A DNA stretch of 56,667 nucleotides from an uncultured Elusimicrobia bacterium (GTDB lineage: Bacteria > Elusimicrobiota > Elusimicrobia > UBA1565 > UBA9628), in NCBI GenBank assembly GCA_964653765.1, contig CAZZGQ010000002.1, positions 1-56,667 on the forward strand, given 5' to 3'. This document shows, one piece after another, positions 20,801 through 30,561 of this stretch. The notes beneath the pieces were generated by a model. That model was not told the DNA's origin and made no database searches. It was given only the letters and a program-made list of their open reading frames with translations. The position numbers and the translations under genes were made by a program. Positions within the stretch are counted from its first letter, which is position 1. Every line of letters begins with the position of its first letter.

Positions 20801-22615
20801 ATGTTCCTTGCGACCACCGCATTGAGCGAGTTCTGGGATACGCGCTCCAGTATTCTGTTCCTTGGATCCTGGTGCTGCCTGCACAGCCGGATCCGGCAGC
20901 TCAAGACGATAGAGCACGCCGTCTTGCCTTATCCGTTAGACGATAAAGCCGTCTTCGATGAGGCTGTCGAGTTCTGCGACGTCTTTTATGACAGGTCCTT
21001 ATCCATTCTAGCGAGGACGCTGAACGGCCTGCACGGGACCTCTCTCAGCGAACAGTATTGGCGCATCCTTCTTGGCCCGTGGCTTACCCATTACATCCAC
21101 GCTCTCTATGACCGCTACCTTTGCGTCCAGGCCGCGCGAGAGAGCTATGGCGTCCTCGAAACCATCGGGCTGGACGAGTCGTCGTATTTCGTGCCTCGAG
21201 ATGCCGACGATCTGCTCAGGTCCATCCATACGGACTCCTATAACCTGCAGCTTCTCACCGCGACGTGCGAGTTTATGGGTGTCCGAATCAACTCGAGAAA
21301 AGCCCTAGATGTGCGGTCCGAAACCATCGTGCTTTCTCATTGGCGCGCGCGGCTCAAGCTTCGAGCGAGAAGAGTGTTTGCGGGATGCCTCGCGCGCCTG
21401 CTTCCTCAGTCCGTTTTCCTTCGTGACGGCCAAATCTGGTATTTTTCCTCTTACCTTCCGCTTAGCGCTCGGTTCCGCCTCCTGCTGCAGACTCGCGGTA
21501 GGGCGGTGTTCGTTCCGTATCACCGTAATGGCCCGAAGTTCGGCGCGCCGAAGATGGACCGCGATCTGCGCGCAGGGCTGGCTCGCGCATTCGGCGAAGG
21601 CGAATTCGAGCGCCTCTTCGCCTCAACGCTCGCCGCGAATTTCCCATGGCTGTACCTCGAGGGCTATGCTCGTTATCTGGCGCAGTTGAAGCCGATGTTG
21701 AGCCTCTCGCCGCGGGCGCTCGTTGCCTCCACCAATACCGTGCCCTTCCAATTCATCGCGGCTCAGCTCAAAGAGAAGGCCGGGTCCAAGCTCATCAGCG
21801 TCCAACATGGCGGCTCCTTCGGAACGGTCAAGCATAGTCCGACGGAGAAGCACGATCAGATAGTCGCGGATGAATATTGGAGCTGGGGCTGGTCAGACGG
21901 TTTGGGCGGACGCGCCAGACCGGTTCCCGGCTTCTTGCTCGGTTCTAGTCGACGACGGGGTGCCAGACGCCGCATGACGGGTCCTATTCTCTATAGTGGC
22001 AATGATATGCCGCGATACGCCTATCGTCTCTGGAGTAATCCGATCGGACCGCAATGGGAAGAGTTCATCCAATGGCAGCACCGCTGGCTCAGGGCGCTTG
22101 GAGCCGAGGCGCGTTCGGAGCTCTTTATTAGACTCTATCCCCACGACCATTACCTTTGGGAGCAAAAGCAACGGCTGCTAGAGTCATTCCCTGATTTGAG
22201 GCATGATGACGGTATAGTGCCATTCGAAGAAGCACTTGACCGCTGCAAGCTGTTCGTAGCTGACAACAACCACACCACGTTATTGCAGGCTCTGTCGGCG
22301 GACAAGCCGACGGTTTTGTTTTGGGAGCCGCGCTTCAATGGGCTTCGCCCGTCTGCCGAGCCCTACTTCGCCCGATTGCGAGAAACAGGCGTATTGCACT
22401 ATTCTCCCGAAGATGCCGCACGCAAGGTCAATGAGGTCCGCTCTCAACCGATGGACTGGTGGCGGCAGCCCGATGTGAGGCGAGCTGTAGCTTCGTTCAG
22501 GAGGCAGTTTGCCCATACCGAAGCCGATACCACAGCGGCCTGGGGCGACTCCTTTCTTCGGCTGCTCCGCAACTCTGTAAACCCAGCCGATCCGTCCTTG
22601 CTTTCTCGTCGATAG
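20801..22615 (+). CDS. Putative glycan transferase, resembles LIC12162 family (GT-B-like C-terminus)
   Basis: MFLATTAL.E.W...ILFLG.WC N-terminus, W.ILLGPWL, QHGG, WGW, RLYP, N.TT.LQAL....PT. Confidence 0.72.
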   Translation: MFLATTALSEFWDTRSSILFLGSWCCLHSRIRQLKTIEHAVLPYPLDDKAVFDEAVEFCDVFYDRSLSILARTLNGLHGTSLSEQYWRILLGPWLTHYIHALYDRYLCVQAARESYGVLETIGLDESSYFVPRDADDLLRSIHTDSYNLQLLTATCEFMGVRINSRKALDVRSETIVLSHWRARLKLRARRVFAGCLARLLPQSVFLRDGQIWYFSSYLPLSARFRLLLQTRGRAVFVPYHRNGPKFGAPKMDRDLRAGLARAFGEGEFERLFASTLAANFPWLYLEGYARYLAQLKPMLSLSPRALVASTNTVPFQFIAAQLKEKAGSKLISVQHGGSFGTVKHSPTEKHDQIVADEYWSWGWSDGLGGRARPVPGFLLGSSRRRGARRRMTGPILYSGNDMPRYAYRLWSNPIGPQWEEFIQWQHRWLRALGAEARSELFIRLYPHDHYLWEQKQRLLESFPDLRHDDGIVPFEEALDRCKLFVADNNHTTLLQALSADKPTVLFWEPRFNGLRPSAEPYFARLRETGVLHYSPEDAARKVNEVRSQPMDWWRQPDVRRAVASFRRQFAHTEADTTAAWGDSFLRLLRNSVNPADPSLLSRR

Positions 22616-22688: not shown

Positions 22689-24551
22689 ATGACCAGCCTC
22701 TCAACGAGGGCGGTGTGTTTCCCAAAATTGAGCCTTGCGGCGCTTGTGCTTGCAAGGTTCAGGCTGCGAAGCGGGCTAGAGGTGCACTTCGAGGATTACC
22801 CGCTCTACGCGAAGGCTCTTTTGCGCTGGTTCCGCGTGCCCGAGCGGTGGATTTTGGCTACCTATAGCGCCGTCGCACAAGGATCTGTCCAGCGCCTTCC
22901 AAGAGGAGATGCCCTGCCTGACCAAGCTCGTTTGGTCCTGCAAGCGATGCAGCTGGCCGACGATCTAAGCGTTGGGATCGAGCCGTTGATCACTGATAGC
23001 CAATGGGGCGCCTTCGGCCGGGAATTCTTGGGCGCTGAGCCTGCCGCCGCCGCCACCATCAAGCGGTTTTCCTGGGATTGGGCTTGGCCTTTCGCAAAGA
23101 CCATCGTCATCGCACGCGCCATTGTATCGGCCGACCGTCCACTCGTTGCGATTTGGAGCCCCTCCATTCCGGAAAACTGGCGGCAAGCGTGCGACTCCGT
23201 GATCGAGCGCTCAGGCGTTGAGATTGTGTCGTGGCCCATGGGGGCGGCGGCTATTTGGCGTTTGTTTACCGGCTTGGCTTGGGCCGCACGTGTATTGGGT
23301 TTGACTATGGCGACGGTGATTCGACATGGCATCAGACGAGGCGGGGCCCGCCAATCAGCCCTCATGGGAATCGAGCTCGTTGATCCACGGCGAATGGGAG
23401 GAACCCCGGCCGATCTTGATTATTGGATTGATGGACGCAAGGTGAAGCGGGAAGACGTGTTGTTTTACATGCACGGAGCGCAGAGGAATTTTTTGAAGCG
23501 AATGGGCGTTGACTGCGACGAGATTTTGCCGCGGCTGCGAGGTCAAGGATATCGCGTCTTGGAGCTCTATCGTCTTCCCTTGTCCTTTGAGTCGATTCGC
23601 GAGATCTTGGGAGCGTTGAGAAAGCTGCCAATACTTTCCGGGGGAACTGGAGGTTTTGGCTCCGTCGTTTATGAGGCGTGGCGGGCCTTTTTGACTTACC
23701 TGCCGCTTTTTGACCATAGCACTCCTCTTAACATGGTTCACACGCCTTTCCCAAGTGGGTTTGCCGGACCCCGTCTTGATAGTGGCGTTATTACGGGTTT
23801 GTGCCGAAGCCGAGGAAGCCGCAGCGTCGGCTATCAAAACCGTTTCGTCTACGATACGTTTGAATTCGATTTTGACTGCTACGATCTCTTCTTGGCTTGG
23901 GGAGCAGGTTGGTGGGATTCTTGGAGGCCGTTCTTGTGCCGCGTCCGCGATGTCTTTGAAGTTGGATGCTCCAATCTCGCGACGCTAGGCGCTTCCGATC
24001 TTAAGGATCAAAGAACCGTCGTGGTTTTTGCCCAAGAGCTCAATGGGAACCATTATTCCGCGTCGTACAATTACAAGTTGCTGCGCGCCTGTGGAGAGCT
24101 GGCCCGCCGATATCCTCGATGCAAGTTTGTCGTCAAGATGAAGGATTTGCAGGACATTGATGCCATTCTCAGTGATGCCGATTTTCGCCGGTATTGCGAG
24201 ACGATCTCGAATTTTTCCTTTGCTCGACTGTCGCGTCACGAGTGCGCGGGGTTGCTGCGGCAAGCCGATATTGTGATCGCCGCGGCCTACACAACGCCAG
24301 GTGGCGACGCGCTCTTAGCAGGCAAGCCCGTCATTTTCTACAGCGAGCTTGGCGGAGGGTGCAAAGCGCTAACGTCGATCTCCGGCTTGGTGGCGGAGAC
24401 GCTGAGCGATCTTGAAGTCTACTTTGAGAACGCGCTTGCTTCGATCGATCGGGCGGGGAAGTGGCCGCTTGAAACCCTGCGCAGACTGGATCCGTACCGA
24501 GATGGGGCTGCGCGTGACCGGATTATAGAACGGATTTTACAGGAAGCTTAA
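22689..24551 (+). CDS. Putative glycan transferase, GT-B-like C-terminus (resembles PFTS-motif polysaccharide biosynthesis proteins)
   Basis: GYQ, D.FLAWG, VVKMK, ADIVI..AYTTPG.DALLAGKPVIFY, DPYRDG.A..RI (typical GT-B terminal helix). Confidence 0.6.
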   Translation: MTSLSTRAVCFPKLSLAALVLARFRLRSGLEVHFEDYPLYAKALLRWFRVPERWILATYSAVAQGSVQRLPRGDALPDQARLVLQAMQLADDLSVGIEPLITDSQWGAFGREFLGAEPAAAATIKRFSWDWAWPFAKTIVIARAIVSADRPLVAIWSPSIPENWRQACDSVIERSGVEIVSWPMGAAAIWRLFTGLAWAARVLGLTMATVIRHGIRRGGARQSALMGIELVDPRRMGGTPADLDYWIDGRKVKREDVLFYMHGAQRNFLKRMGVDCDEILPRLRGQGYRVLELYRLPLSFESIREILGALRKLPILSGGTGGFGSVVYEAWRAFLTYLPLFDHSTPLNMVHTPFPSGFAGPRLDSGVITGLCRSRGSRSVGYQNRFVYDTFEFDFDCYDLFLAWGAGWWDSWRPFLCRVRDVFEVGCSNLATLGASDLKDQRTVVVFAQELNGNHYSASYNYKLLRACGELARRYPRCKFVVKMKDLQDIDAILSDADFRRYCETISNFSFARLSRHECAGLLRQADIVIAAAYTTPGGDALLAGKPVIFYSELGGGCKALTSISGLVAETLSDLEVYFENALASIDRAGKWPLETLRRLDPYRDGAARDRIIERILQEA

Positions 24552-24557
24552 GAATCG

Positions 24558-25382
24558 ATGCTATCCGTTGACGCGTTGGCGCAAAAGAATATCGAGCATC
24601 ATTCCCGGCTCAGCGCCGAGCACGAGTGGGTCAAGGGATTTGTATCCGCCGAGGCGCTAAGGCGGGCCGTTCCAACTTCCGGGACGAAGACGCTCGAGGA
24701 ATTTGAATCCGGCTATTTTGGTCCCGAGGTGGGCCCCGTACGCCGCTATCTCGAGGCGCAGATGCATCGATATATTAGCCCTGTGGATGAGTTCTTGGAC
24801 ATGGGTTGCGGCGGGGTTTGGTGGAAAGAATCTTATTGGCCGATCCCCAAACGCGTGACAGGCGTCGAGATTAATCCCTTCGCGCTGTTGAGCTTGCGAG
24901 ACACTTATTGGGACCATCGGAGATATCGTCTCATTTATGCTCCCTATGGTTTAACCGAGCTGCCCGATCAGTCGTTTGATCTGGCGCTTTCGTCGAGCGT
25001 GCTCGGATACGTTCTGCCTTCCATCGCGCAGCTTCATATCGCAGAGCTGGCCCGCCTGACGCGTCGAGGGGGATACGCCGTCTTTAGTCGCGTGAAGGCC
25101 GCCAATATTTGGACGCATGGCAGCGGGACCCGCTTGCGAGAAATCTCTCCGGGCGTATTCGATTACGCCTATTCACAACGAGATCTGAGGCGCGAGATCA
25201 TGAGCCACGGATTTGTGATCGAGGAATCGCGCAGCGTTGGCCTGCGGCTTCCGTTGCCGTGGCGAGCTATTCAAACGCTTTATCGTCAAGGGTGGGCGGG
25301 CTTTATGGACGCGGCCGCGAATAGGCTATTTCCGATTTTCCCATTGCACCATCTCATCGTCGCGCGAAAGAGGGGATCATGA
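24558..25382 (+). CDS. Class I SAM-dependent methyltransferase
   Basis: LDMGCGG, GVEIN, LPDQSFDL.LS..VL.Y. Confidence 0.82.
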   Translation: MLSVDALAQKNIEHHSRLSAEHEWVKGFVSAEALRRAVPTSGTKTLEEFESGYFGPEVGPVRRYLEAQMHRYISPVDEFLDMGCGGVWWKESYWPIPKRVTGVEINPFALLSLRDTYWDHRRYRLIYAPYGLTELPDQSFDLALSSSVLGYVLPSIAQLHIAELARLTRRGGYAVFSRVKAANIWTHGSGTRLREISPGVFDYAYSQRDLRREIMSHGFVIEESRSVGLRLPLPWRAIQTLYRQGWAGFMDAAANRLFPIFPLHHLIVARKRGS

Positions 25383-26512
25383 CCATTCGTCCTAGGCGGG
25401 CTCTTTTAAATCCTGAATTGATCCGACCCAGCGCGTTGAGCTCCCAACCAAGAGATCCTAAGCTTCTTTGGCTCGATAAGAACGAGAACTTGGACCCTGA
25501 GCTCCTCTCTGTTTCCCGAAGGATTCTTCCCGAAATCTTGCCGCTTGCCCTGTCGACGTATCCGGAGGCAGGAGAAACGTATCGAAAGTTGGGCCGTTGG
25601 CTGGAAGTCAGTCCTGAGTCATTATTGCTGACGCCAGGAAGCGATGGCGCGATTCGTCTCGCCTTTGAGGCGTTCGTCGACTCCGGCGACCCCGTTGTGC
25701 ACACTCATCCAACCTTCGCGATGTACCCCGTTTACGGCCAGATGTTTGGGGCTCAGGTTCATCGCGTCGAATACCAGCGAATAGGCAACGCCCCATTCAT
25801 TGATCCCGAGGCAGTTGTTCGGCAGCTCAAGGCGCATCGCCCGAAGCTCTTGTGCTTGCCGAACCCCGACAGCCCTACGGGCACTGTTCTTGCGCCAGAG
25901 GCCATTGAGAGCCTCTTAAAAGAATGCGAGGCCGTTGGCGCCGTGCTGCTGCTTGATGAAGCCTATCACCCGTTTCACGATTGGTCGGCGGCTCCCTGGA
26001 CCAGGGAATACAAGAATTTGATTGTCGCAAGGACATTCGCCAAGGCCTGGGGTGTGGCCGGCCTTCGGATTGGTTATGCCGTGGCTCATCCAGAAACCAT
26101 CGCTCTATTGCACAAAATGAGACCGATGTATGAGACAAGCACGTTCGCCGTCGAGTTCGTTTCTCGACTGCTTGATCATGCGCCTGACATGATGCGATCC
26201 GTGGCTCGGATCAACGAAGGAAAGCAGTATTTTGCTGGCGAGATGAAGGCCTTGGGATTGGAGGTTCTACCGACGGCCGGGAACTTCCTTCATGTCGACT
26301 TCGGCGGTCGAGGGCCGGTTATTCATGCGGCGCTTTCCGGCAAAGTCCTCTATCGGCCGACCTTCGATCATCCCAGCCTCGCGGGATACAGCCGCTTCAC
26401 GGTCGCGCCGCGGCCCATCATGGCTCGCGTCGTCGAGATGATCAAGGCCGCTTTAAACCCAGAAGTTTCCCAGCCTCAGGGAGCTCCTCAAGCGCGCGAG
26501 GTCCGAAGTTAA
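25379..26512 (+). CDS. HisC/CobD-family PLP-dependent aminotransferase (class I/II)
   Basis: LDKNEN, GSDGAI, NPDSPTG, DEAY, RTFAKAWGVAGLRIG, GNF. Confidence 0.9.
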   Translation: MTIRPRRALLNPELIRPSALSSQPRDPKLLWLDKNENLDPELLSVSRRILPEILPLALSTYPEAGETYRKLGRWLEVSPESLLLTPGSDGAIRLAFEAFVDSGDPVVHTHPTFAMYPVYGQMFGAQVHRVEYQRIGNAPFIDPEAVVRQLKAHRPKLLCLPNPDSPTGTVLAPEAIESLLKECEAVGAVLLLDEAYHPFHDWSAAPWTREYKNLIVARTFAKAWGVAGLRIGYAVAHPETIALLHKMRPMYETSTFAVEFVSRLLDHAPDMMRSVARINEGKQYFAGEMKALGLEVLPTAGNFLHVDFGGRGPVIHAALSGKVLYRPTFDHPSLAGYSRFTVAPRPIMARVVEMIKAALNPEVSQPQGAPQAREVRS

Positions 26513-26520
26513 GTCTTCGC

Positions 26521-27468
26521 ATGAAACATCAAGTTTTGATTTCGCCGTCGTCGTTTGGAGACTGCGGCTCTGATCCGCTTCGGATTCTCGAGGAGGCTGG
26601 CTTTGAGCTCAAGTTCAATCCTTACAGACGAAAACTGGTGCGCGCGGAAGTCGTGGAGCTTGCGCAAGGCTGCCACGGCCTGATCGCCGGCGTCGAGCCA
26701 TTAGACAAGGAAGTTCTGGAGAAGCTACCCGAGCTTCGCTGCATCAGCCGCTGCGGCGCGGGGCTTGATAACGTGGATCTGAATTGTGCGCGGGAGCTTG
26801 GGATTTCCGTTCTTAATACGCCGGAGGGGCCAACGCGAGCCGTGGCGGAGTTAGCCGTTGGACTGACGTTCGCCTTGGCCAGGGCCATCCCACGGCGCGA
26901 CCGCGCCATGCGCGCAGGACGTTGGGATAAAAGCCTCGGCATGTTAATCGAAGGCAAGACAGTGGGCGTGATGGGCCTTGGCCGTATTGGTCGGGCCGTG
27001 GCGCTTTTGTTTCAGTCCCTGGGTTGCCGCATTCTTGGAAACGATGTGCGTCCCGACGTGTCATGGGCGCGAGAACATCACGTTGAGCTCGTTTCTTTTG
27101 AAGAGCTTCTCAAACAAGCCGATATCGTTTGCCTCCATGTTTCCCTTGGCGCAAACAGCGTCGGTTTGATTGGACGACCCGAGCTCGCGCTTTTGAAAGA
27201 AGGCGCGTTATTGGTCAATTTGTCGAGGGGCGAGGCGGTTGACGAGGCCGCGCTGATTGAGGCGCTTGATTCCGGGCGCCTAGCTGGAGCTGCGCTTGAC
27301 GTCTTCGCTCAGGAGCCCTATCGAGGACCTTTGCTACGCTACGACAACGTCGTTTTGTCGCCGCACGTTGGGTCCTATGCGCGGGAAGCTCGACTGCGCA
27401 TGGAAGTGGATGCGGCCCGTAATCTCATCGCAGGCATGGACCAGCGGCTTGAACGCAAGCAAGGGTAA
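26521..27468 (+). CDS. D-2-hydroxyacid dehydrogenase (SerA-like, no ACT domain)
   Basis: ISRCGAGLDNVD, AVAE, GLGRIG, LH, N.SRG..VDE, LDVF..EP, SPH. Confidence 0.9.
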   Translation: MKHQVLISPSSFGDCGSDPLRILEEAGFELKFNPYRRKLVRAEVVELAQGCHGLIAGVEPLDKEVLEKLPELRCISRCGAGLDNVDLNCARELGISVLNTPEGPTRAVAELAVGLTFALARAIPRRDRAMRAGRWDKSLGMLIEGKTVGVMGLGRIGRAVALLFQSLGCRILGNDVRPDVSWAREHHVELVSFEELLKQADIVCLHVSLGANSVGLIGRPELALLKEGALLVNLSRGEAVDEAALIEALDSGRLAGAALDVFAQEPYRGPLLRYDNVVLSPHVGSYAREARLRMEVDAARNLIAGMDQRLERKQG

Positions 27469-29146
27469 GTCCCATGTGCGCGCCAACGCCGCCATTTACG
27501 GCGGAGCGGGCATCATCGTCCAAATCTTTCGTCTTGTCCAAGAAGTCCTTTTGCGCCGACTGCTCACGACGGAGATCATCGGAATCATCGGCTTGGGCGA
27601 TTTGGTCCAAAGTTTCGCCAAGAGCTTGGATCTGGGCGTCGTTGTGGCCGCGGGACGAGATTTGCCGCTGCTTCGCGGAGCGGGACGCCTCGATGAGGAA
27701 GCGATCGCTCGGAGAACGGCTCTATGGGGCTATGTAGCGCAGGCCGTTATATTCGCTATCCCAGTCGTTGTTTACGCTCTCGTTGCCGTCACCGATCCCA
27801 ACATTCGCTGGGCCTTGTGTGCGGCCTCCCTCGTTCAGGTTTTGACCGCCGCCTGCGAGGCGCGGCAGCTGGTCCTTCAGTCCGTCCAGAATTTCGCGAG
27901 CTTAAGCCGCGTCAACCTCTCCTTCGCCTTGATCTATGCCGCTTGCGTTGTGAGCGGAGCGGAATTGTTTGGGCTGCGAGGGGTCCTTGTTGGGGGCGTG
28001 GCGGCCTGGATTGTTCAGACGTTTCTCCTGCGCCATTACATCGCCGGCTTAGTTCTTCAAGAGGGGCGTCTCGATTTCAGAGTATTAAAGAGTCTCATCA
28101 GCTTTGGCCTTCCCTTGAAGCTTTGTGATTATCCGACCGCGCTTGCATTTCTCGTTGACTCGATGATTGTTGGAAAGCTCTTCGGCCTTGAAGGATTGGC
28201 GATTTACTCGACGGCGCGCGCGTTCTTCAACCAAGCCCTCGAGCTTCCCACGCGGTTTGGAAGCGTCGTGCTGATGAGGCTGTATCATGACGACGCAGCC
28301 GAGGGAAGGGCAGTCTCGGCCGCTCAATTGGCTCGATTCCTTAAGGCGCAATATTTTCTCATCCTTCCGGTTTTGGTTTGCGGCTTTGCCGTTGGCCTTA
28401 GGTTCCTCGCCTCTTGTTTCCTGCCTCGTTACATGCCCACGGTTGCGGTGGCTGAAGTTCTTATTCTTGAGGCTTATTTTGTTCCGCAGATCAGCTTGAT
28501 GCGTAATTATTGGATCATCGACAAGAATCTGCGCCTAATCGCCGTCTCGGGAAGCTTGTGGCTCATCTCTCGCGTCGTTTTGCTGTATTGGCTGGCTGTC
28601 GGCCTGAAGCTTGGGCTTATCGGCGCCGCTTGGGCATGTGTCGCCAGCGCCATTGTCTATTACGCATTCCTTTTGATCGGGATCGGGCACCCGCTTTGGG
28701 GCGGTGCTGGCAGCACTCGGCTTGGCTTGTCGGCGATCATTTCGGCCGCCGTAGCGGCGATTGCTGTGCGACAATTGAATACTCCAATGCCAGCCGTTTT
28801 GACGGCAGCGATGCTTGTCGCCGTCCGTCAATTGACTGGAATGATGATGGTGATTTCTCCACTGATCCTTTTCGGCCTCCTTGTTGTCGTCGCCGAAGAC
28901 AATGACGTTGGTTCCGTTACTGTCTGTCTGCCGCGGCTGAGCTTGTGGGCTCTATTCTTTGCCAGGATCAAAAGGAGAAAACCACTGGACGTCTACTTCG
29001 AGGATTACACGCGCTATGCCAAGGCGCTCATGCGCTGGTTTGGCATCCCTGAATCTTGGTTGTTGATTTGCTACCAGCTTGTCGCTGGCCGCTCGGTTCG
29101 CCGATTGCCGCAACGAACCTTGGGGGTTCCATCCCTCTCGGCCTAA
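27449..29146 (+). CDS. wzx: Wzx flippase with an extra ~80-aa C-terminal extension (start TTG 27449 or GTG 27476)
   Basis: RRLL....G, DLG...A.GR.LP, LISFGLPL, D...VG.LFG..GLAIY, LGLIGAAWA; many TMs. Confidence 0.8.
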   Translation: MNASKGKSHVRANAAIYGGAGIIVQIFRLVQEVLLRRLLTTEIIGIIGLGDLVQSFAKSLDLGVVVAAGRDLPLLRGAGRLDEEAIARRTALWGYVAQAVIFAIPVVVYALVAVTDPNIRWALCAASLVQVLTAACEARQLVLQSVQNFASLSRVNLSFALIYAACVVSGAELFGLRGVLVGGVAAWIVQTFLLRHYIAGLVLQEGRLDFRVLKSLISFGLPLKLCDYPTALAFLVDSMIVGKLFGLEGLAIYSTARAFFNQALELPTRFGSVVLMRLYHDDAAEGRAVSAAQLARFLKAQYFLILPVLVCGFAVGLRFLASCFLPRYMPTVAVAEVLILEAYFVPQISLMRNYWIIDKNLRLIAVSGSLWLISRVVLLYWLAVGLKLGLIGAAWACVASAIVYYAFLLIGIGHPLWGGAGSTRLGLSAIISAAVAAIAVRQLNTPMPAVLTAAMLVAVRQLTGMMMVISPLILFGLLVVVAEDNDVGSVTVCLPRLSLWALFFARIKRRKPLDVYFEDYTRYAKALMRWFGIPESWLLICYQLVAGRSVRRLPQRTLGVPSLSA

Positions 29147-30561
29147 TCCTGCCAGTCCTTCCCCTTTTTGGGGCGGTTTACGTTTATTTCTTTGGGCTAA
29201 AAGCAAGTCCCATGCAGGCGCTCCTGGCCGCTCTTCTCTGTTTTTTGTTTTGGCCGAAGGTGGGCTTGCACCAGCCTCCTCTCCTAGAGGGGATGTCGGC
29301 CTATATTTTCATGTGGCCGATCACCACGAGCGCGCTCGCCTTAAGCGTCTGGCGACATGAAGGGAAGAGGCAGGCGTCGGTCGGCAAGGCGCTTGGACGA
29401 TGCCTTTTCATCGCCATAGCGGCCGTCACCGTCTCATTTACGGCCTCCTGGTTGGTCGACAAACAGGGTCTTGCTCCGTCCACGATCGAGCCGCGTTTGC
29501 GCGTTTATAATTTTCTCATCTTGCTGCAAGCAGGATGGTTTTCTTATTTGTTTTTGCGCAGCGTGCGCACCGCGCAGGATGCGCGCCGCGTATTAGAAAT
29601 CTTCGCCTTGGGCGGGGGCGTGATTGTCGCGGAGTCAATTGTATTCGCTTACCTGAAAATACCGTCGCCTGGCGGTTTGGCGTTCGATAAGACGGCAGGG
29701 CGTTTTCAGAGCTTCTTCTATTCCAGTTTCTCCACCGTGAATTTTTTTATGACCTTGGCGTTTTCGAGCATGATGTATATGTCCTTGACACGGCGTCGAG
29801 CGTGGCTGTTATTAACGGCGGCTTGCTTCTTGCCTGTGATGGCGACCTATGAGCGCGGACCGATTTGTGGGCTACTGTGCGTGGCTCTGGTGGCTTTCCT
29901 TGCGACGCGCCGGCGCAAACTGCGATGGTTGCTTTCGATCGCTGTTGTCGCCGCGGCGCTAGCCATCGCCTTTCCGCTATTCTCGGAAGGGTTGGGCCGC
30001 GTGATGGGGGGCTCGGTACGCAAGGATTATTTTTCCTCAGGCCAGGTTTCCGTGCGGCGCGCGATCTGGGCGCGTGGTCTGGATGTTGGAGTCGTAGCGT
30101 TTCCGTGGGGGGTCGGCCCTGGCCTGTTTTCGGAGCAGACGGACGCTGTAGCGATCTGGGTACCGCCGGAGCGGTTCGCCGGACCGGCGGATCGCCTGTT
30201 TTGGGAGACTTATAATAGCCTTGTTCATGGATGGTATCATTCCGATTTGCATAGCCTCTACATGACTTGGATTGTGGAAAATGGGCTTCTTGGGATCCTG
30301 ACTCTTGTCTTTGTGGCGTTTATTTTTGGAAGAAGCCTTCTGGCGCTCTTGCGTACTCCTATTCCCACCGGCGATGAACCGTGGCGAACCTATGCTTTAT
30401 GGGTTTGCTCTTGCGCCGCTTTCGCAGGCCTGGCCGTAGACTATGCTTTTGACGTCAATCCTTTTTTGTTTTTCATGCTGTTTCCCCTTTTGCACATCGG
30501 CAAGGTTTGCCAACGGACACTCAGGTACAATAGCGACGAGCAGGCCATGTCGATTTGTTAG
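29056..30561 (+). CDS. O-antigen polymerase/ligase family (Wzy/WaaL) membrane protein; start uncertain (29056-29212)
   Basis: About 12 TMs, TYERG, large loop with R..IW..GL..P.GVG.G.F, HSDLHSLY..W.VENG..G. Confidence 0.78.
   Translation: MVVDLLPACRWPLGSPIAATNLGGSIPLGLILPVLPLFGAVYVYFFGLKASPMQALLAALLCFLFWPKVGLHQPPLLEGMSAYIFMWPITTSALALSVWRHEGKRQASVGKALGRCLFIAIAAVTVSFTASWLVDKQGLAPSTIEPRLRVYNFLILLQAGWFSYLFLRSVRTAQDARRVLEIFALGGGVIVAESIVFAYLKIPSPGGLAFDKTAGRFQSFFYSSFSTVNFFMTLAFSSMMYMSLTRRRAWLLLTAACFLPVMATYERGPICGLLCVALVAFLATRRRKLRWLLSIAVVAAALAIAFPLFSEGLGRVMGGSVRKDYFSSGQVSVRRAIWARGLDVGVVAFPWGVGPGLFSEQTDAVAIWVPPERFAGPADRLFWETYNSLVHGWYHSDLHSLYMTWIVENGLLGILTLVFVAFIFGRSLLALLRTPIPTGDEPWRTYALWVCSCAAFAGLAVDYAFDVNPFLFFMLFPLLHIGKVCQRTLRYNSDEQAMSIC

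Follow-up and report, generated by a model that had tools for sequence, protein, structure and literature searches.

Gene remnants have been described as an anomaly in nine E. coli O-antigen clusters, where they were read as marks of recent events (PMC7685785), and a tyv remnant is present in the Abe module of Yersinia pseudotuberculosis (PMC5399914). The window analyzed here, a stretch of 56,667 nucleotides, is one large surface-polysaccharide locus that encodes glycosyltransferases, methyltransferases, aminotransferases, dehydrogenases, and an RmlD-like reductase, as well as two cytidylyltransferases of the CMP-sugar synthetase type. The local gene order is LIC12162-family gene, 620-aa gene, methyltransferase, aminotransferase (class I/II), dehydrogenase (2-hydroxyacid type), wzx with its tail, and wzy (Table 1). 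The tail shares an open frame with wzx (starting at 27296, 27410, or 27476 and ending at 29146) and contains a 63-aa segment similar to the start of the 620-aa protein. An earlier note, made from the sequence alone, had offered two readings of this tail: the scar of a deleted second transferase, or a portable membrane-associated docking module. Our analysis favored the first, with a probability of roughly 0.82: the tail would be the scar of a deleted GT-B transferase gene that has merged into the wzx frame, and the resulting appendage is most likely inert.

Table 1. Coordinates of wzx, its tail, and the neighboring genes discussed in the text (positions in the window).
Feature	Position	Strand	Basis
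LIC12162-family transferase gene, directly upstream of the 620-aa gene	20801..22615	+	NCBIfam TIGR04331, E 7e-128
Intact member of the ~620-aa family, predicted GT-B glycosyltransferase	22689..24551	+	AF2, Foldseek, identity to L004–L006
wzx core, predicted MOP-type flippase	27476..28882	+	Matches the orthologues over their entire length
Junction segment	28883..28921	+	Three-frame translation of the window, L004, L005, and L006
Putative remnant, N-side (codons ~8–71 of a copy of the ~620-aa GT-B gene)	28922..29110	+	wzx frame
Putative remnant, C-side (last ~11 codons and TAA 29144–29146)	29111..29146	+	DNA alignment, codon comparison
wzy, O-antigen polymerase/ligase-like, Wzy_C	29212..30561	+	Pfam PF04932, E 5e-13

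The segment in the tail (translation VCLPRLSLWALFFARIKRRKPLDVYFEDYTRYAKALMRWFGIPESWLLICYQLVAGRSVRRLP) and residues 9–71 of the protein encoded at 22689 (nt 22713–22901, translation VCFPKLSLAALVLARFRLRSGLEVHFEDYPLYAKALLRWFRVPERWILATYSAVAQGSVQRLP) were located exactly as the earlier note had given them, in both coordinates and sequence. Its count of 37 identical residues out of 63 without gaps was reproduced by BLASTP (45/63 positives, E 2e-25), and the DNA word it had reported as shared was present in both copies as the 14-mer ACTTCGAGGATTAC. When the 620-aa protein was searched against the window (tblastn), the wzx tail was the sole other match (E 6e-17). A six-frame search of the entire assembly (4.04 Mb in 626 contigs) yielded just these two copies of the segment and no further one. 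The DNA of the two copies was identical at 113 of 189 positions, divided over the three codon positions as 38, 49, and 26 of 63. Identity at the third position was therefore 41%, which is near random and indicates that the two copies are old rather than the product of a fresh duplication. As read from these alignments, the resemblance is one at the protein level, with synonymous sites saturated. A recent duplication of the 5′ end of the 22689 gene was rejected on the same third-position value and on an overall DNA identity of only 60%.

No Pfam or NCBIfam family was assigned to the 620-aa protein of the window, and a profile search of the PDB was empty or marginal; among eight family members, single marginal matches to Epimerase_2 (7e-4) and Glyphos_transf (0.23) were obtained. 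An AF2 model built on eight members (pLDDT 78, pTM 0.75) showed two Rossmann-like alpha/beta halves, an arrangement shared with GT-B enzymes and UDP-GlcNAc 2-epimerases (PDB 1f6d, 3beo, 4xsu, and 3d0r; WbbB 8csc). The top Foldseek matches of the model were GT-B enzymes (E 4e-6 to 4e-4, probability ~1.0, target TM-score up to 0.55), including UDP-GlcNAc 2-epimerases, GT1 and GT4 transferases, trehalose-phosphate synthase, and the Kdo transferase WbbB. A further likeness, by our own reading of the alignment, lies in the C-terminal TTPG..AL..GK region, which resembles nucleotide-sugar-binding halves. Unlike the structures matched, the family has no family membership at the sequence level, and the 620-aa protein exceeds them by ~200 residues and carries long helical inserts (residues 79–145 and 184–213). 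Conserved motifs of the family include GYQNR, EFDFDCYD, AWGxxW, VKxKD, and TTPGxxAL.

In this model, residues 7–69 form a strand-helix-strand-helix-helix-strand succession that opens the N-terminal Rossmann half, and this half continues beyond the segment with strands at 152–155 and 177–180. The segment thus corresponds to strands 1–3 of a larger half and would be a fragment of a domain rather than a module of its own. The earlier note had described the tail as a copy of an N-terminal domain; a copy of the N-terminus it is, and the model limits it to a part of the domain. In the model, it is the first beta-alpha-beta part of a Rossmann half and not the separate domain that the docking proposal would imply.

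Besides the window, genes of the ~620-aa family were located in L004 (11509–13368), L005 (5828–7693), L006 (3567–5468), L012 (5001–6869), and L013 (5007–6869). Their hosts are MAGs labelled Actinomycetes, Opitutaceae, and Solirubrobacterales, as well as soil contigs. The position directly before wzy is conserved, usually after wzx, and genes for NeuB and a CMP-sugar synthetase are often nearby. The family offers a candidate for the transfer of a nonulosonic or ulosonic acid sugar. As a by-product, the analysis brought to light an unannotated, predicted GT-B family of ~620 aa in loci for sialic-acid-like (nonulosonic acid) sugars of several phyla.

A profile of the two copies was run against 1.84 billion representative proteins and returned eight matches. 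These were N-terminal in proteins of 614–644 aa or in short fragments, except for one repetitive protein of 2951 aa, and no credible case outside the N-terminus of the ~620-aa family was found among the representatives. One protein, P0009 (220 aa), has ~60 residues of the family N-terminus and then Ala/Arg/Pro-rich text of the type that arises when high-GC DNA is read out of frame; this protein is probably a family member with a frameshift or a wrong gene call rather than a short form. A word-based search restricted to the tail matched only the L004 gene; a metagenome scan contributed a further N-terminal case of the ordinary kind as well as a single chance match (L016). The segment was never found on another Wzx by the profile, the tail-restricted word search, the search with the wzx ORF, or the metagenome scan. 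Neither a closer intact relative of the remnant nor the same remnant elsewhere was recovered by the tail search, in the metagenome scan, or among the relatives. In 60 taxonomic relatives the ~620-aa family was absent apart from two marginal partial matches, and the locus is patchily distributed. The earlier note had suggested searching the segment alone against databases, and this search gave no further fusion. Its idea of a portable docking module was not supported: in these searches the segment was confined to the N-terminus of one family and was on no other Wzx.

The start of wzx is GTG 27476 or ATG 27410. A search with the wzx ORF returned four orthologues, P0004–P0007, of 490–503 aa and 53–62% identity. 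They aligned up to residue ~497 of P0003, the end of all four coinciding with the beginning of the 63-aa segment, and the last ~75 residues of the window Wzx had no counterpart in any of them. The window Wzx had no Pfam match at E 0.01; matches of P0007 to the Polysacc_synt-type families PF01943/PF13440 were weak or faint, and the positional counterpart of wzx in L013 matched PF13440 (3.5e-8). The body of the ORF would resemble MOP-superfamily Wzx flippases in that it is orthologous to 490–503-aa proteins encoded next to wzy and was modelled by AF2 as an all-helical membrane protein. It differs from them in the foreign C-terminal extension of ~75 aa, carried by none of the homologues found.

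The position of the tail was explained by the gene order in relatives. In L004, L005, and L006, the gene after wzx encodes a protein of 619–633 aa; its start and the stop of wzx overlap by 4 nt that read ATGA (GTGA in L006), and wzy comes next where the contig extends far enough. The order of wzx, the 619–633-aa gene, and wzy was found in L004, L005, L006, and L013 and is present in an Opitutaceae MAG; in an Actinomycetes MAG the order is NeuB, the 620-aa gene, and wzy. Over its full length, the 22689 protein is 55–63% identical to the products of the genes behind wzx in L004–L006, the same level as that of the Wzx proteins. The tail was 51–59% identical (E about 1e-19 to 1e-25) to the N-termini of the intact window copy (win_620), L004_619, L005_621, and L006_633, the values for the last three being 51–57%. 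Since the wzx orthologues end where the segment begins and the relatives carry the family gene at that place, the tail is a remnant located at the ancestral position. The reading of the earlier note as the scar of a second transferase was borne out here: a full-length homologue lies between wzx and wzy in relatives.

Other parts of the neighborhood were also compared. The pair of aminotransferase and 2-hydroxyacid dehydrogenase genes that immediately precedes wzx (25379–27468 in the window) is conserved in L005 (2328–4366) and L006 (105–2125), so this pair belongs with the wzx block; L007 has the aminotransferase without the dehydrogenase. The methyltransferase gene at 24558 was not seen in the relatives' contigs that carry the pair. 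Upstream of the wzx block, L004 (8011–9828, minus strand) and L005 (414–2219, minus strand) have a divergent gene for a 601–605-aa protein without a Pfam match, the two copies being 64% identical. It gave no BLAST match to the LIC12162-family gene of the window and is unrelated to it.

At the 3′ side of the segment, the family proteins continue after SVRRLP with RGDAL; the tail reads QRTLGVPSLSA and stop, which aligned ungapped and in frame to DRILEAQFP and stop in relatives. The DNA from 29102 to 29146 aligned gaplessly and codon by codon with the last part of the gene in relatives (RIIDRILEAQFP and stop), followed by the conserved 5′ region of wzy. Both ends thus match the family gene, indicating that codons ~72 to ~610 were deleted from within it without a change of reading frame and that the remnant has nearly kept the original stop. 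Approximately 82 of ~620 codons are left, ~71 N-terminal ones joined in frame to ~11 C-terminal ones and the stop; most of the gene is missing and the remnant is without an in-frame start codon of its own. This match of the last ~11 codons to the family C-terminus, together with wzx orthologues that end at the start of the segment, extends the deleted-transferase reading of the earlier note to both borders of the tail. No IS element or recombination end was visible next to the remnant.

The 5′ side is less orderly. In the wzx frame, the junction reads VVAEDNDVGSVT, which is unlike the basic C-terminus of the orthologues (SSRRQPGAI, RSRRARSA, and RSRRAETV, each followed by the stop). Frame +2 of the junction reads RRRRQ, similar to these basic ends, and then TGA (28903–28905), which overlaps an ATG in frame +1 (28902–28904) as ATGA, just as in relatives. 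This ATGA (28902–28905) looks like the vestigial wzx stop and start of the lost gene, both now out of frame. ATG 28902 sits 20 nt 5′ of the GTC of VCLPRL; this distance is 21 nt in relatives and 24 nt in the intact window copy. With the wzx body and the segment both in frame 0, two or more small shifts of frame inside 40 nt separate the window from the relatives' arrangement, which follows directly from comparing the reading frames. A (CTGT)2 tandem run, CTGTCTGTCTG, is situated at 28920–28930, exactly where the frame of the remnant leaves the vestigial ATG. The loss of one base, or slippage of one 4-nt CTGT unit, would explain how this ATG came to be out of frame. An independent small gene for the segment was ruled out, since there is no in-frame start between MMMV (~28850) and 28922. 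The ORF from ATG 28902 has 12 codons and stops at 28938–28940, and a small gene from this ATG was likewise rejected because the ATG is out of frame.

Taken together, the following course of events is proposed. The ancestral order would have been wzx, the ~620-aa GT-B gene, and wzy, the first two joined by an ATGA in which the stop of one overlaps the start of the other. The locus probably held two old paralogous transferases, of which the divergent intact copy stays 6 kb upstream at 22689, and the copy at the ancestral place would have lost codons ~72 to ~610 through an internal deletion that kept the frame. Later small indels at the overlap may have put the wzx stop and the ATG of the remnant out of frame, so that the wzx frame would now read through the remnant and end at, or close to, the remnant's stop in front of wzy. 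As protein, the 63 residues are most likely without function, and Wzx would bear a tolerated cytoplasmic appendage of ~75 aa. An open frame ending at this point may keep ribosomes arriving at wzy, which lacks both a canonical start and a Shine-Dalgarno sequence. Such ribosome delivery would explain the survival of an in-frame, ‘non-polar’ deletion; because the deletion is in frame, the 3′ end was kept, and wzy has neither canonical start nor clear ribosome binding site where the relatives' Wzy begins, we infer that deletions that kept ribosomes up to wzy were the ones that survived.

The selection analysis did not speak for this scenario in all respects. Of the 39 columns invariant in three relatives, the tail has kept 29, as has the intact 22689 copy (29/39), and there is no stop or frameshift within the 82 codons. 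Pairwise dN/dS between the tail and the family, a comparison that the earlier note had suggested, was about 0.1–0.18, with dS saturated and the remnant's own branch inseparable with one genome; the dN of the remnant was only slightly above that of the intact paralogue. Low dN/dS with saturated dS indicates only that most of the divergence built up under constraint, while the sequence still belonged to a functioning gene. The remnant showed no visible neutral decay. Either the truncation was recent, or the frame or the remnant is still constrained, and the preserved sequence would fit both. Three further points were counted against the scar. At least two frame changes in 40 nt could hint at selection for read-through. 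With no close relative carrying either the intact gene or the same remnant, the timing of the loss is not measurable. Finally, AF2 predicted the tail of the complete Wzx as a small beta-alpha-beta unit with moderate confidence (pLDDT 63–79), an order that is alignment-driven, and the five models disagreed with each other (mean pLDDT 49 to 74).

Among the alternatives, the one that survives best is that the DNA was kept for the expression of wzy, the remnant supplying either its start (TTG 29056 or 29068) or terminating ribosomes. The open wzy frame reaches back into the remnant, as far as TTG 29056. In the alignment with L004 and L006, no ATG, GTG, or TTG was present at the position of the relatives' Wzy N-terminus (~29140–29160); the only canonical options are the two upstream TTG codons and, downstream, ATG 29212, which would cost about 20 conserved Wzy residues. 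There was no clear Shine-Dalgarno sequence before any of the start candidates, and the deletion is in frame, with the 3′ end of the gene kept beside wzy. On the other hand, the non-canonical ATC 29146 or CTG 29149, or ATG 29212, may suffice as a start, and an in-frame outcome is expected by chance in one case out of three. As an explanation in its own right, we consider this unlikely. It would place selection on the open frame and not on the residues, and would then be a compatible refinement of the scar.

A functional fusion, in which the N-terminal piece serves Wzx as a docking or regulatory extension, maybe a tether to the paralogous transferase or to Wzy, is less probable than retention for wzy expression and was given little weight. 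It would account for the family-conserved residues being kept as well as in the intact paralogue, for the unbroken frame, for the presence of the segment in the wzx frame despite an ancestral overlap that was out of frame, and for the ordered secondary structure predicted by AF2 with moderate confidence. These points are opposed by the distribution of the segment, carried by no other Wzx and never found outside the N-terminus of one GT-B family, and by its structure, since three strands of a larger Rossmann half are not expected to be stable alone. Moreover, synteny and deletion fully explain its position and both of its ends. A specific form of the tether, with the remnant co-opted as an acceptor-side beta-alpha-beta piece on the cytoplasmic C-terminus of Wzx that binds the 620-aa transferase or Wzy, appears slightly more doubtful still. 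If true, the last transfer step would be physically coupled to flipping, for instance by mimicry of the transferase N-terminus.

An assembly or binning artefact, with a chimeric join or a collapsed repeat creating the fusion, could be suspected in a fragmented MAG (626 contigs, 88% complete) and is highly improbable, the two copies being too different in their DNA to collapse and separately assembled contigs being identical. Eight runs of soil metagenomes, belonging to a 2021 and a 2025 study, contain the stretch, and their Logan contigs showed 0 differences and 0 gaps over 28300–29700, and one contig of 9.8 kb spans both copies at the expected spacing of 6.2 kb. A chimera, which the earlier note had named as a possible refutation, was thus ruled out at the contig level, the two studies agreeing across all junctions; this agreement rests on contigs, which hide rare variants, and a minority genotype is possible.

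With the scar as the preferred reading, the wzx ORF should be annotated as a flippase plus a gene remnant instead of a new protein with two domains. Of two paralogous transferases in the locus, one should be regarded as recently lost, and the repeat unit has probably changed with it. The locus would also provide a clean natural case of an in-frame deletion of the ‘non-polar’ kind within a block of wzx, glycosyltransferase gene, and wzy that is coupled in translation. Compared with the remnants known from O-antigen and capsule loci, the likeness is evident: what is left of a truncated sugar-pathway or transferase gene lies in a surface-polysaccharide locus, marks a fairly recent rearrangement, and has an intact functional counterpart elsewhere. 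Unlike in those cases, the deletion was internal and in frame with both ends of the gene kept, and the remnant has been absorbed into the reading frame of wzx. The wzx tail is nevertheless a further example of these known scars, which are ordinary in fast-changing surface-sugar clusters.
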